A DNA stretch of 64,000 nt from Plasmodiophora brassicae (taxonomy: Eukaryota). Below the pieces are notes generated by a model. It ran no database searches and was not told where the DNA came from. It saw only the letters and a list, made by a program, of their open reading frames with translations. Below are positions 7,575 to 11,762 of this stretch, in pieces (position 1 is the stretch's first letter; each line of letters opens with the position of its first letter). The stretch lies in contig CP145426.1 of the NCBI GenBank assembly GCA_036867785.1, forward strand, positions 682,001-746,000. The letters run 5' to 3'. The translations under genes and the position numbers were made by a program.

Positions 7575-9149
7575 ATGGCGCTGTACAGCGGGCGCAAAGC
7601 CCTGCTGGTCCTGGCGGGCGTCTCCATTGTACAGCCGCTGCTCCTGCTCTGGCTGGGGGGCGTGTTCACATTTACCGACATGGAGGACACGGTCGAGGCG
7701 TTCTATAAAGGGGCCGACCCTGCGCCTTGGGCGCACGACGTCGACCTCCTCGTTCCGATCGCGTCCGCTGAGTCGTCATTCTACGAGGTGACTCGCCTGC
7801 TGATATGGTCGGCGTTGCTGTTCTGGCCGCGCCGGCACTTCCGCCTCGTCATCGTCACCGATGAGGAAGACCCGGAGACGCCCTCGGTCATGAACCAAAC
7901 GATGCACTACGCCAGGGGGCACCAGGCTGTCCGGAATATCGAGTTCCGGAACAACACGCTGGCGTTCAAGCAGTCGGGTCAAGGTCGGGCCCGACGCGGC
8001 GCTCTCGCCCATGTAGCATACGTTGCTGAGCCGCTCTGCACAGAGCGTCAGCAGTGGATCATGTTCTGGGCCGACAACTTCACCGACGCCGAGTACATCG
8101 GCCTGGTGGACACCGACACGGTCGTCACCAGCCGCATCCTGTACGAGGACATATTCGCAGAGGGTGATCGACCGCGCGTGCGGGTCGTCTACGGCCCACC
8201 ATTATGCTCCCCGTGTAGGATGAGGCGACGCGCGTGGGGGGCCGTTCGTCGAACTAAGCCGAATGCGCTGTCAGGGATCGAGACGCCGCAGGGGACGCTG
8301 TTCGCGACCGGATTCAAGGAGAAGTTCAAGGGCATGTCGCAGTTCCCGGTGGTGGTGAAACGCGCCCACCTGCACTCGTTCCGGGAGCACATCCGCCTGC
8401 ACCTGAACATGACGACGTTCGACGACGCCGTCGAGCTGCTGGTCTCCAAGAAGACGAGCTTGCTGTGGTTCGCGCAGTTCAACCTGATCGTCAACGTCCT
8501 GTACGAACTGTTCTACGACGACTACGTCTGGCATGTGTTCCGGCGGGAGCCCGGGTGGGATGGCCCAGGGCCCCTGGGCCAAGTTGCCAACGTAGGTTCC
8601 CCCCGCAGCTGCTGGACAGCGTCGTCGTGTACTGAGTGGCCCACTGATTGCGCACAGCTGGCCGAGGCCAATCTACGGCCGCAGGACATGCTGCTGTGGC
8701 CCCACGTCTGCATGCACTGGTCGTACAGGCCGACCAGCATCCCCCAGACGAACAAGCAGTTCGTCAAGCTCATGCGCGAAGGCCACTGTCACGGGCTGCG
8801 GAACGCCACGTTGCGATCGGGCGACGCGCCGTGGTACTGCGCCGACATCCGCGTCGCCGAGCGCCCCTGGGTCCGGCCCTGTTCGGATGCGGACCGACGA
8901 CGTCGCGGGTCTGACCGCATCGCAGATCGAATGGCTGTTCGAATTCGACTTCTTCTACGACGTCCCCGGCAACGACGACGCGCATCGGCGCCGTCGCCAC
9001 ATCATCGAGACCATCGCAGGTGCGTACCGGTGGAGGGGCCCGCGCACGCAGCGCAGACGGTTTTTCAACGCGTCGCAGACCACGAATGGGACCCCGCCCT
9101 GCTACGCCTGCTCGAGCAGCAGCCCGAGCCGACCCTCCTCAAAGAATAA
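7575..9149 (+). CDS. Type II membrane protein, putative GT-A-fold glycosyltransferase, multi-exon
   Basis: N-terminal TM (KALLVLAGVSIVQPLLLLWLGGVF); QQWIMFWADNFTDAEYIGLVDTD with a DxD motif; several short introns. Confidence 0.55.
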   Translation: MALYSGRKALLVLAGVSIVQPLLLLWLGGVFTFTDMEDTVEAFYKGADPAPWAHDVDLLVPIASAESSFYEVTRLLIWSALLFWPRRHFRLVIVTDEEDPETPSVMNQTMHYARGHQAVRNIEFRNNTLAFKQSGQGRARRGALAHVAYVAEPLCTERQQWIMFWADNFTDAEYIGLVDTDTVVTSRILYEDIFAEGDRPRVRVVYGPPLCSPCRMRRRAWGAVRRTKPNALSGIETPQGTLFATGFKEKFKGMSQFPVVVKRAHLHSFREHIRLHLNMTTFDDAVELLVSKKTSLLWFAQFNLIVNVLYELFYDDYVWHVFRREPGWDGPGPLGQVANVGSPRSCWTASSCTEWPTDCAQLAEANLRPQDMLLWPHVCMHWSYRPTSIPQTNKQFVKLMREGHCHGLRNATLRSGDAPWYCADIRVAERPWVRPCSDADRRRRGSDRIADRMAVRIRLLLRRPRQRRRASAPSPHHRDHRRCVPVEGPAHAAQTVFQRVADHEWDPALLRLLEQQPEPTLLKE

Positions 9150-9458
9150 GACGGGACGCCCCCACCCCGCGAGCGGAATACATTATTGGCAGCAGGTGGT
9201 GCGGCCGCGCGCTCTCGCAACATGTTCGTGTGCGCGACGGGCGCCCCAGTCGGAGCTGCACCGGGGTCGACTGTGGGCTGCAAACGGCCGGCTGCAGTTC
9301 CCGGCGGCAGCCGCGGAGGGACGTTGGCCCCGGGGACATACGAAAAAATCGCCGCGGCGACACGCGCGGTCCCCGATGCCGTCATTTTCCAATTTGGGGT
9401 GGCGGACCGACCCGGGACGGGGGCTGCCGCCGCTGCTGCTGCTGCTGCTGCTGTCGTC

Positions 9459-11559
9459 ATGTTGACGCGCGTCGTCTGGGGCGTCGGCATCTGGGTGGCC
9501 ACGGTCGTCCTGCGCACGCTGGCGTCGTGGCTGGTGGCGCTGCTGCCGAGTTTCGGGGGCGTGCCGGCCGCCCCGCGCACGGACGCCGGCCGCGACCTCG
9601 GCTTCACCATGTTCGCCGTGACGCCGCCGATCCTGCCCGACCTGTTCATCATCGTCGGGACGATCGCCACGCTCATGGCCGTGTCGAAACGCGATCGCAC
9701 CGGTGTCCCGTACGGCAATCGCATGACGAACCATGTCGGTGGATGTCGCGTTTGTCGCCCCGGCCGTCGTCGATGACCGCGCCGCCCTTGTAGTTGCTGT
9801 TCTGCGGCGGCGTCATTTGGGTGTTCAGCTCGCAGCTCAGCTTCCTGACGCAGACGGCGTCGCCGTCGGCGGAATGCATGATCGCCGTGCGCCCGCTGAA
9901 CTACGAGCAGTCGCTGTTCGCCCATACGAACTCGCTGCGGCTGTCGTTCCACGCCGCCTACCTGACCATGATCGTCCTCGGCTGGCAAATGTACCACCCG
10001 TCGGTCAATTCCGATTTCAGGTTCGATCGTGGAATCGGATCACGTCGCGCGTTCCTCCGTTTGCTGACGCGTGTGTGCAGCAAACGCCTCCTCATGGCGG
10101 CCTGGATCGTCGCCCTGATCTCCATCATCTCGTCGCGCATCGATTTCACGGCCGACGTCGTCCGCGGCAGCCTGTTCTCGTTCGTCGTCTTCTATTTCTA
10201 CCGGTACATGTGGCCGGAGAAGGTCAACCCGGTCGGCATGACGGTCGGCGCGGACGTCCTGTCAACCGGGGAGCGCGAAATCGTCGGCGTTCCGTCTTCT
10301 ACCAGGGTGTCCCGCAGGCGGTCTGCGAGGCGAAGTTCGCTGACGGCCACGCCGACGGCAACGACGACGACGCCACCGCCGGTGGCGCCAGCGGCGACGC
10401 AGACGTCCCCGCCGCCGCCGACGCCGGCAACGGATCTCCAAGCGGAGATCGCGCGCCAGCGTTCCAATTACCTGGCGCTGCTGCGTCATGCGCTGACGAA
10501 CACCATCTACGAGGACGAGCCGCTCGTCGTCTTCGACTGCACCGACCGGACCAACTTCGTGTCCGTCGGCAAGTACAATATTCGCGTTCGCGAATCGGGC
10601 CTCGACCTGCCCTCCCTGGCCCACTGTTCGTGCGTCGTCCTGTCGTCGTGCGTGGAACGTCGCGTTGACCGTGTGCCTGCTGGCGCAGGTCGCTCCGGGG
10701 GTATGCGCCTGCAAGCGCTCCATCAGTGCGTCGAGAAGGTCCTGGGCGGCAACGTCCCCGGCGACCTCATCGACGTCGGCGTGTGGCGCGGCGGTGAGGC
10801 CATCTACCTACGTGGCGTCCTGAATGCCTACAACTGCCACGACCGCACCGTGTTCGCCGTTGGCACGTTCCGAGGCCCGATCAGCATCCCTACGATGTAC
10901 GTCGCTTGTGCGGGTGGGTGTTGCTGGGCGTCCCTCTCTCGCTCAGCTGCTGTCCACACAGGCTGAAGCGGACGTTGCAATTCTTTTGCAGCATCGTCCC
11001 GATGATCTGGGTCGTCAACGTTCTGTCCGTGCTGACGAGGCTGATCCCGAAGGCGGCCCCGTTCCCGACGGTCGCCGAGCCCGGCAGGAACGGCAGGCAG
11101 CACCAGGCCTGGCTGCAGTTCCGCCTGGCGAATCCCGACGTTCTCGAGCGGAGCACCGTCGGCACCGACATCGTCTCCGTCAAGAACGCGTTCAAACGGT
11201 ACATGGTGTATCACCTGGCGCGCGCACGCACACACACAACGGCTGATCGTGTCGCCGGCAGGTACGATCTGCTCGACCCGCTCGTCGAATGCATTCAGGG
11301 CGACCTGAAGGTGACGCTGTCGCACCTGCACGGGCGGAACCTGTCCCTGATCCGGCTGGGATCCGGTATCAGCGACGCCGACTCGACGCAGGCACTGTCG
11401 CACCTGTACCCGCGGCTGTCCAGCGGCGGGTTCGTCATCGTCGACGACTACGCCGGCGCCATGGCGTCCATCGATCGGTTCAGGGACGAACGGCAGGTGC
11501 GCGACCCGATCGTCTGGATCGACCATCAGTGCGCCATCTGGCGGAAACAGGCCGCATAA
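9459..11559 (+). CDS. Fusion of an IPC/sphingomyelin-synthase-like (PAP2_C) multi-TM domain and a TylF/MycF-type O-methyltransferase domain, multi-exon
   Basis: N-half: RDLGF, FLTQTASPSAEC, LSFH, SRIDFTADV. C-half: NVPGDLIDVGVWRGG and LYPRLSSGGFVIVDDY...WRK. The start could lie further upstream in the same frame. Confidence 0.75.
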
Positions 11560-11762
11560 CGGGGACGCTCTCCGTACCGGTGTTGCCGCGCCGGGTGCCT
11601 CCTCGCCCAGGCCAGACGCGCGTGCGTCTGCGGGGGTTTCCAATCCCGTCTCGTATCTGTTTAACAACGAGTTCACCTATTTCACGAGCGGCTGCCGTCC
11701 CGAACGTAACAGGGTCTCGCCAGGAACAGCACCCGCGCCGGTCTTCTCTTCCAGGAGTTGCT

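Follow-up and report, generated by a model that had tools for sequence, protein, structure and literature searches.

A sphingomyelin synthase-like membrane domain fused to a TylF-type methyltransferase fold in Plasmodiophora brassicae: an expressed, lineage-restricted protein with altered catalytic motifs in both halves

Plasmodiophora brassicae, the agent of clubroot of brassica crops, is unculturable, and for this reason the functions of its genes are mostly read from sequence. In this work we have analyzed one of these genes, located between nucleotides 9459 and 11559 on the forward strand (+) of a 64,000-nucleotide stretch of contig CP145426.1 (GenBank assembly GCA_036867785.1, positions 682,001 to 746,000; this whole stretch is called the window and all coordinates refer to it). 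Its 596-amino-acid product has been deposited at NCBI as 'Macrocin-O-methyltransferase (TylF) [Plasmodiophora brassicae]' (here P0002). An initial annotation of the locus proposed that the gene fuses a degenerate relative of sphingomyelin synthases (SMS) or inositol phosphorylceramide synthases (IPCS) to a degenerate TylF sugar O-methyltransferase. The locus raises the question of whether a single protein really unites these two domains, and what such a protein may do when catalytic residues of both are changed. We conclude firmly that the SMS-TylF architecture is real, expressed and lineage-restricted; the substituted residues suggest that both canonical reactions have probably been lost. The initial observation is confirmed and its interpretation partly supported.

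The coding sequence (CDS; 9459-11559, 596 codons plus stop) consists of six exons (9459-9734, 9794-10020, 10081-10625, 10689-10896, 10962-11198 and 11262-11559, all on the + strand, as are all features of the gene given below). The exons were defined by trying exhaustively the GT/GC-AG intron combinations against P0002, which left a single solution whose spliced translation equals P0002 exactly. The five introns, all of the GT-AG type, are 59, 60, 63, 65 and 63 nt long, and the window is eukaryotic in character, with short introns and a high GC content (about 57-76% in 2-kb bins). Stop-to-stop open reading frames (ORFs) in 9459-11559 (+) gave TylF matches and weak matches to the Pfam family PAP2_C. 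The read-through ORF at 9794-10966, used as a query, retrieved nine proteins: P0002, its 579-amino-acid orthologue of the same architecture from Spongospora subterranea (P0003), the window's own ORF and six ordinary TylF proteins.

Exon 3 (10081-10625) codes for the fifth and sixth transmembrane helices (TM5 and TM6), a T/P/A-rich linker and the start of the TylF domain (about 65 residues). The domain junction lies inside this exon and therefore was made neither by splicing nor by the annotator. The argument of the initial annotation, that a junction within one exon excludes a gene-merge artefact, is borne out by this model, by contigs spanning both halves and by the sequences from Spongospora and three further fragments (P0011, P0012 and P0016); only the exon borders, given at first as about 10082-10630, had to be moved to 10081-10625, with the donor GTTCGT at 10626. 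The GT at 10630 was considered as an alternative donor and rejected, as it gives a 59-nt intron and breaks the TylF frame.

Four public runs (X1, X2, X4 and X9), each from a different study and guessed to be RNA with no RNA source listed, provided contigs for comparison with the window over 9300-11700. In contigs of 4/4 runs all five introns are skipped at the exact GT..AG borders, and one contig each of X4 (record 9) and X9 (record 10) covers the six exons from before the start to beyond the stop. Because intron-less contigs are what spliced mRNA yields, the transcription of the fusion gene is shown. No CDS letter differs in the contigs of X1, X2, X4 and X9 (with pieces covering 10078-10625 and 11261-11700), and the two differences found overall, both in X2, fall into the 3′ untranslated region (UTR), at 11596 and 11630. 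The altered codons described below are not assembly errors. Beside the spliced form, 123-nt contigs of X1 and X2 (10868-10990) with high word depth retain intron 4; such retention introduces an in-frame stop at 10964-10966 and would cut the protein off immediately ahead of the lid insert of the TylF half, and it could reflect unspliced pre-mRNA, DNA carry-over or regulated retention.

The 5′ end of the gene was also inspected. An in-frame ATG is present at 9222-9224, 79 codons upstream of the annotated start and with no intervening stop, and a (GCT/GCC)n run at about 9428-9455, just upstream of the start, would be translated as poly-Ala. Orthologues P0003, P0014 and P0015 begin at the position equivalent to 9459 and contig X4 record 9 begins at 9398, for which reasons the annotated start codon at 9459 looks right.

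The N-terminal half of the protein (residues 1-211, 9459-10210, spanning introns 1 and 2) is an SMS/PAP2_C-like six-helix membrane domain according to AlphaFold2 (AF2) models, profile alignment with hhalign, comparison with human SMSr and the ESM Atlas. The helices are placed by AF2 at residues 2-28, 58-76, 85-110, 144-159, 166-186 and 191-211, and six helices are present in both models that were built. PAP2_C is the best Pfam family in the N half of P0002 (24.5 bits, under the 27-bit cut-off) and the top non-TylF family in each of P0002, P0003, P0011, P0012 and P0016; AtPDCT1_2 gave no family-level Pfam score in P0002. A word-index search with the N half returned only P0002, the window's own read-through ORF (P0001) and P0003. 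An HMMER profile built from the two N halves (Plasmodiophora and Spongospora) and run against 1.84 billion representative sequences (E <= 0.001) gave 16 matches: three known sequences (P0003 and the window's own ORFs P0001 and P0010), seven fragments belonging to the same clade, protein P0018 and five canonical SMS-like proteins (P0019-P0023). The canonical proteins were reached at E 6.8e-5 to 8.7e-4, carry the SGH(T/S) and HYT(V/I)D motifs, and all five pass Pfam PAP2_C with 59-80 bits. The match in P0018 (1830 amino acids) covers the N-terminal part of the profile in eight stretches of residues 1555-1648 (E 2.4e-7) and may be a low-complexity or repeat match.

When a profile of clade sequences only (A5) was aligned by hhalign with the five canonical SMS-like proteins (A6), a match of 98.2% probability (E 3e-14, 162 columns) was obtained, in which RDLGF pairs with PD(I/L)G(F/H), SFHA with SGHT and RIDFTADV with RFHYTIDV. 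The clade-only profile found no SMS match among PDB sequences. The match of a mixed profile to SMSr (2.6e-18) was rejected as evidence of homology, being circular with canonical SMS-like rows inside the profile, and has served for residue mapping only. Residues 1-235 fall next to PAP2_C/AtPDCT1_2 clusters in the ESM Atlas (score 0.93-0.95), and in its structure search clusters of plant PAP2_C, of SMSr and of SMS1 were matched with template modeling (TM) scores of 0.73-0.75. Foldseek with the N-half model returned nothing at E <= 0.001, its first row being human SMSr at E 0.033. VIA-align of the model against 48,161 chains placed human SMSr (8ijr_A) at the top with Z 12.8 (167 aligned, 4.9 Å), a value within the range that helical bundles can reach by chance; the rows after it include LPP1 (9.3), G6PC1 (8.8), Aur1 9ivc_A (8.8), PgpB (7.7) and LpxE (7.4), all PAP2 folds. 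Besides this range of Z, two facts weigh against the assignment: the PAP2_C gathering score is reached by 0/5 clade members (P0002 24.5, P0003 19.6, P0011 22.0, P0012 24.1 and P0016 16.2 bits), and the AF2 model of the N half is of moderate quality only (predicted local distance difference test, pLDDT, 67.5). We trust the SMSr match despite the helical-bundle caveat because PAP2 folds fill each of the seven rows that follow and the sequence profiles point the same way. On these profile and model comparisons the homology of the N half to the SMS branch of PAP2, as the initial annotation had supposed, is regarded as established.

What has become of the catalytic center of this half can be read against the mammalian enzymes. 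According to one study, the SMS motifs D3 and D4 are C-G-D-X3-S-G-H-T and H-Y-T-X-D-V, respectively; the catalytic triad of SMS2 is H229/H272/D276, each Ala mutant being without SMS, ceramide phosphoethanolamine synthase (CPES) and phospholipase C (PLC) activity; and the headgroup is N-P bonded to the catalytic-triad histidine (PMC11663969). The same source lists SMSr E205D, C293A, G294A and D295A as mutations of residues tied to CPES activity, and a review quotes from the SMSr cryo-EM paper a pentad E-H/D-H-D (PMC12292559). The corresponding motifs of P0002 are those quoted in the initial annotation: RDLGF (45-49), TQTASPSAEC (111-120), SFH (143-145) and SRIDFTADV (186-194). In the D1-like segment RDLGF...ILPD (residues 45-61, 9591-9641) the acidic character of SMSr E205 is kept by Asp61, with which it pairs in the alignments. 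In the D3-like segment TNSLRLSFHA (residues 137-146, 9926-9955) the histidine is kept (SMSr H301, here His145), and SMSr C293-G294-D295 is lost, being replaced by Thr137-Asn138-Ser139 and, in Spongospora, by S-S-S. In the D4-like segment SSRIDFTADVVRG (residues 185-197, 10130-10168) the aspartate is kept (SMSr D348, here Asp193), and the position of the catalytic histidine, the phospho-headgroup carrier of SMS enzymes (SMSr H344, the equivalent of SMS2 H272), is occupied by Asp189, codon 10142-10144. The triad is thus incomplete: His145 and Asp193 are present and the D4 histidine has become Asp189.

The change in D4 is shared within the clade. All five clade sequences covering D4 (P0002, P0003, P0011, P0012 and P0016) have Asp at the position of the D4 histidine, SFHA is found in 5/5 of those covering D3 (P0002, P0003, P0011, P0012 and P0017), and Ser186, Arg187, His145, Asp193 and Asp61 are conserved around Asp189. 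Between Plasmodiophora and Spongospora 12/13 residues of D4 and 8/10 of D3 are identical, as compared with 43% in the whole N half and 21% in TM1, which makes the altered motifs the best-conserved stretches of this half. The term 'degenerate' chosen in the initial annotation implies drift and needs correction; judged by its conservation, the N-half site is one that has been remodelled and then held fixed, not decayed.

The two halves are joined by a basic and then T/P/A-rich linker (residues 212-283, 10211-10426) that is predicted to be disordered (pLDDT < 50 over residues 217-268) and is poorly conserved, only 9/72 residues (12%) being the same in Spongospora. Beyond it, residues 284-596 (10427-11556, spanning introns 3-5) have a TylF-family class I methyltransferase fold, as indicated by Pfam, MycF and Foldseek. 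The Pfam TylF family (PF05711) matches with 173.4 bits (E 7.1e-51; gathering score of 23 bits passed) in two stretches divided by an insert. By sequence the half matches MycF (2.7e-38) and NovP (2.9e-36). The full-length AF2 model has a pLDDT of 78.5, with the TylF part mostly > 90, and Foldseek with this model gives MycF 4x7u_A at 8.2e-20, the range for MycF, NovP and SpnH being 8e-20 to 5e-14 with TM scores by target of 0.85-0.93. The TylF halves of Plasmodiophora and Spongospora are 57% identical.

Columns of the TylF motifs (in P0002 GVWRGG 380-385, GTF 408-410, IRLGSG 528-533 and GGFVIVDDY 553-561) were counted against 38 standalone relatives. Motif I for binding of S-adenosylmethionine (SAM), DVGVWRGG (residues 378-385, 10772-10795), is kept: its first column, E in 36/36 relatives, is D here, and G, W, R, G and G are conserved (columns 35-37/38). 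Retained as well is the Asp-Asp pair of VDDY (residues 558-561, 11440-11451), D559 and D560 being present in 38/38 relatives and both plasmodiophorids. At residues 529-535 (11353-11373) RLGSGIS replaces the family motif RLD[GA]DxY. Its two aspartates, found in 38/38 relatives, are Gly531 and Gly533 in Plasmodiophora and Gly and Arg in Spongospora, and the tyrosine that follows (position 535; Y in 37 and F in 1 of 38 relatives) is Ser in both. The initial annotation had noted the preserved GVWRGG and GGFVIVDDY and the change of LRLDGD to IRLGSG, and these statements agree with the counts. Its further claim that DSF reads GTF is correct for Plasmodiophora and does not extend to the clade: the Asp of aDSF (position 408), D in 37/37 relatives, is Gly in Plasmodiophora, and Spongospora keeps an Asp (DNF). 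The Phe of GWF (position 513), present in 38/38 relatives, is replaced by Leu in Plasmodiophora and Val in Spongospora. For comparison, in NovP and MycE a divalent ion holds the substrate and a nearby residue acts as base (PMC4426599).

The insert dividing the Pfam match is a clade-specific lid (residues 414-484, 10880-11157, spanning intron 4 and coded mostly by exon 5). Between FRGP (410-413) and residue 485 it counts 71 residues as compared with about 27 in MycF (139-165), a growth of about 45-50 residues, and the extra segment occurs in 0/38 standalone TylF relatives. The initial annotation had overlooked this insert. It holds FFCSIVPMIWVVNVLSVL, an uncharged stretch with a conserved central Pro and basic residues on its flanks; no 19-mer of the protein is more hydrophobic than residues 426-444 (Kyte-Doolittle 2.07). 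AF2 helices and hydrophobicity define here a hydrophobic hairpin (residues 418-446, 10892-11043), modelled as two short helices at 418-430 and 433-446. The insert is 54% identical to that of Spongospora, rising to 80% in residues 435-449. A true transmembrane helix at 426-444 was rejected, as it would split the confidently predicted Rossmann fold across the membrane. Because a full crossing would divide this fold, the modelled hairpin is best read as monotopic: proline-kinked, it probably dips into the cytosolic leaflet and would put the former active-site lid in the bilayer.

The distribution of the fusion has been followed through the sequences mentioned above. Plasmodiophora and Spongospora both belong to the family Plasmodiophoridae. 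The N-half profile search gave the seven further clade fragments P0011-P0017, and in P0011, P0012 and P0016 a single frame runs from D4 through a variable linker into the N-terminal motif of TylF, so that at least three more sequences have the fusion. A search with the C half among shorter proteins yielded 33 matches, the window's own ORF and 32 ordinary TylF proteins, with no further clade member, and consequently the RLGSG-type state is known from two species only. In JGI metagenome contigs 0/144 and 0/595 pattern matches from N-half alignments were confirmed as clade relatives. The ESM Atlas gave no usable feature match for the whole protein and contained no cluster (>= 50 members) with both domains. 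Outside the clade the searches gave only ordinary TylF and SMS-like proteins and no close equivalent. As far as could be seen from these searches, the fusion occurs only in plasmodiophorids and a few relatives. The full-text literature, with subscription journals and supplementary tables outside its scope, contained no joint mention of Plasmodiophora and macrocin, of TylF and sphingomyelin synthase, or of TylF and PAP2; macrocin O-methyltransferase was not found among the matches listed in the full-text phytomyxid literature, and matches for Plasmodiophora together with O-methyltransferase and sphingolipid were unrelated by title and abstract. The literature so searched contains no description of the domain combination, of the fixed replacement of His by Asp or of the hairpin lid, as the initial annotation had surmised for the architecture; both folds themselves are well known.

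How the protein may work depends on its placement in the membrane. The SMS catalytic triad is located on the lumenal or exoplasmic face (PMC11663969), and in P0002 the basic residues, by reading of the sequence, cluster in the loop at 77-88 and behind TM6. With six predicted helices both termini would lie on one side of the membrane. By analogy with SMS, D3 and D4 would face the lumen or the outside, and both termini together with the TylF domain would be cytosolic. The two active-site regions would then lie on opposite sides, which argues against the halves acting in sequence on one headgroup; this consequence of an SMS-type topology had escaped the initial annotation. The reading we favor, at about an even chance of being right, is that neither canonical reaction survives and that the protein works by binding: the SMS-like pocket on the lumenal side would bind a lipid or headgroup with no covalent phosphotransfer, and the TylF domain on the cytosolic side would be a membrane-apposed module binding SAM or another ligand. 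On this view the protein would pair two pseudoenzymes, both conserved, and its part in the metabolism of membrane lipids would be structural, regulatory or sensory. The weights given to this and the other functional readings derive from residue logic and conservation. Some considerations speak against a protein that only binds. The loss of catalysis is deduced from residues alone, and conserved altered motifs fit equally well a working, changed active site and a binding site. Aspartate can serve as a phosphoryl acceptor in other enzyme families. In the TylF half motif I, the Asp-Asp pair and, in Spongospora, the DSF-type Asp are kept, with which SAM binding and even two-ligand metal binding are possible. 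The aspartates of RLD[GA]D we take to be metal ligand and base, and the C-terminal TylF motifs are known for two clade members only.

The alternatives share much of this evidence. A rather unlikely one, which we entertain tentatively, is a TylF half still active with altered, lipid-directed chemistry: it would bind SAM and methylate the headgroup of a lipid or glycolipid of the cytosolic leaflet, either dispensing with the metal and base normally used or relying on the Asp-Asp pair that is left, with access to the bilayer given by the hairpin and with the silent SMS-like half as an anchor or a substrate-binding partner. It gains from the preserved motif I and VDDY, from the predicted fold with pLDDT mostly > 90, and from the identity of the TylF half (57%) and insert (54%) between the two genera. 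The insert occupies the exact place of the 27-residue MycF segment 139-165, and PDB titles name MycF E139 variants that take another substrate; the position of the insert and the changed substrate of these variants suggest a substrate-contacting lid turned membrane-active. On the other side stand the absence of both RLD[GA]D aspartates, invariant in 38/38 relatives, the absence from Plasmodiophora of the invariant D408 and F513, the Ser in place of Y535 in both plasmodiophorids, and the fact that among the sequences compared no working TylF member is without the DxD. More elaborate, and in our opinion improbable, is a two-sided membrane device unique to phytomyxids, in which a sphingolipid or its charged headgroup would be bound by the lumenal pocket (Asp189, His145 and Asp193), and this pocket would control, via the helix bundle and the tether, a cytosolic SAM-binding TylF domain that methylates or gates a lipid of the opposite leaflet in a metal-independent way.

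That both halves are enzymes seems highly improbable. Asp189 would in this case transfer a phospho-headgroup as an acyl-phosphate-type nucleophile and the TylF half would methylate the sugar or inositol headgroup of the product. Consecutive steps of a pathway are often fused, no part of the N half is better conserved than the motif regions, and His145, Asp193, Arg187, Ser186 and Asp61 are conserved around Asp189; against these count the SMS topology, which places D3/D4 on the lumenal side and the C-terminal domain in the cytosol, so that the two sites would be separated by the membrane, and the lost DxD of the TylF half. No member of the PAP2 superfamily is known to us to use an Asp nucleophile. 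The C-G-D of D3 is lost too, and C293A, G294A and D295A of SMSr are listed as mutations of residues tied to CPES activity (PMC11663969). To an artefact, be it two genes merged by mistake, a faulty assembly or a pseudogene in decay, we give almost no credence. The retained intron 4 in the 123-nt contigs of X1 and X2, with its frame ending at 10964-10966, and the PAP2_C score under the Pfam cut-off could be cited for an artefact, but the junction lies inside exon 3 and is crossed by spliced contigs of four studies, two contigs cover the whole CDS with no differing letter, the 579-amino-acid Spongospora protein has the same architecture, P0011, P0012 and P0016 are in frame across the junction, and conservation is far higher in both halves than in the linker between them.

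The neighbors of the fusion gene have been inspected as well. Upstream, at 7575-9149 (+), lies a 524-amino-acid ORF whose product has a hydrophobic anchor at its N-terminus and contains a VDTDT stretch; no Pfam family matched it at E <= 0.01, and it may be an unrecognised membrane-anchored enzyme. Contig X9 record 10 (6736 nt) reaches about 1.5 kb 5′ of 9300, into this neighbor. The convergent gene downstream (11763-12980, -) encodes a NOB1 homologue (PIN_6 3.9e-21, Zn_ribbon_NOB1 6e-23), whose stop is only about 200 nt from that of the fusion gene, and the 3′ UTRs of the two genes probably overlap.

The annotation of the protein as macrocin O-methyltransferase hides half of it and implies an activity that is probably lost. 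With two folds conserved as a fusion and a fixed change in the catalytic center of each, the protein would be a clean case of the passage from enzyme to binding or regulatory protein, or of new chemistry. The families from which the halves derive both act on headgroups of lipids or sugars, and the protein may mark a parasite-specific step in membrane lipid handling; were the two-sided device true, it would tie methyl-group metabolism to the sphingolipid status of an obligate biotroph living on host lipids. The His-to-Asp change in a PAP2-type site would be of interest to enzymologists if any phosphotransfer survives. The protein should interest most of all specialists in pseudoenzymes, PAP2 chemistry and phytomyxid biology.

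Among known systems the SMS family (human SMS1, SMS2 and SMSr; 8IJQ/8IJR; PAP2_C) is the best structural (Z 12.8, as qualified above) and the best profile match of the N half, with which it shares the six-helix core, the order of D1-D4, the D3 histidine and the D4 aspartate. The P. brassicae protein differs from it in having Asp for the D4 His, T-N-S for C-G-D of D3 and N-H for R-R of D2, in being without the sterile alpha motif domain and below the Pfam cut-off, and in its C-terminal TylF domain. The plant IPC synthases and phosphatidylcholine:diacylglycerol cholinephosphotransferases (PDCT), represented by AtPDCT1_2 and PAP2_C, are its Atlas neighbors (0.93-0.95, TM 0.73-0.75), and fungal Aur1 (9ivc_A) follows with Z 8.8; from all of them it is separated by the same differences in catalytic residues. 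With TylF, MycF, NovP and SpnH the C-terminal half has in common the fold, about 29-30% identity, motif I, the N-terminal AH..G..RL motif and VDDY. Those enzymes are soluble and act, by their PDB titles, on deoxysugars of antibiotics, whereas the protein described here is eukaryotic and membrane-tethered, has a lid of 71 instead of about 27 residues and is devoid of the RLDGD Asp pair. TylF domains have been joined to other partners too: an Atlas cluster of 935 amino acids is named 'Glycosyl transferase family 2/Methyltransferase/Rhamnosyl O-methyltransferase', and in a bacterial-type multidomain protein of 552 amino acids (P0008) TylF is likewise C-terminal to a glyco-/lipid-related domain. 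The partner in P0008, by reading of the sequence, appears to be a soluble glycosyltransferase-like domain, and its TylF has the canonical RLDGDMY, unlike the fusion analyzed here. A precedent for the fate suggested for the N half is provided by the PLPPR proteins (plasticity-related genes), animal proteins of the PAP2 fold, akin to lipid phosphate phosphatases (LPP), that have lost their catalytic residues and are nevertheless conserved and functional; they carry no methyltransferase domain and resemble the P. brassicae fusion by analogy only.

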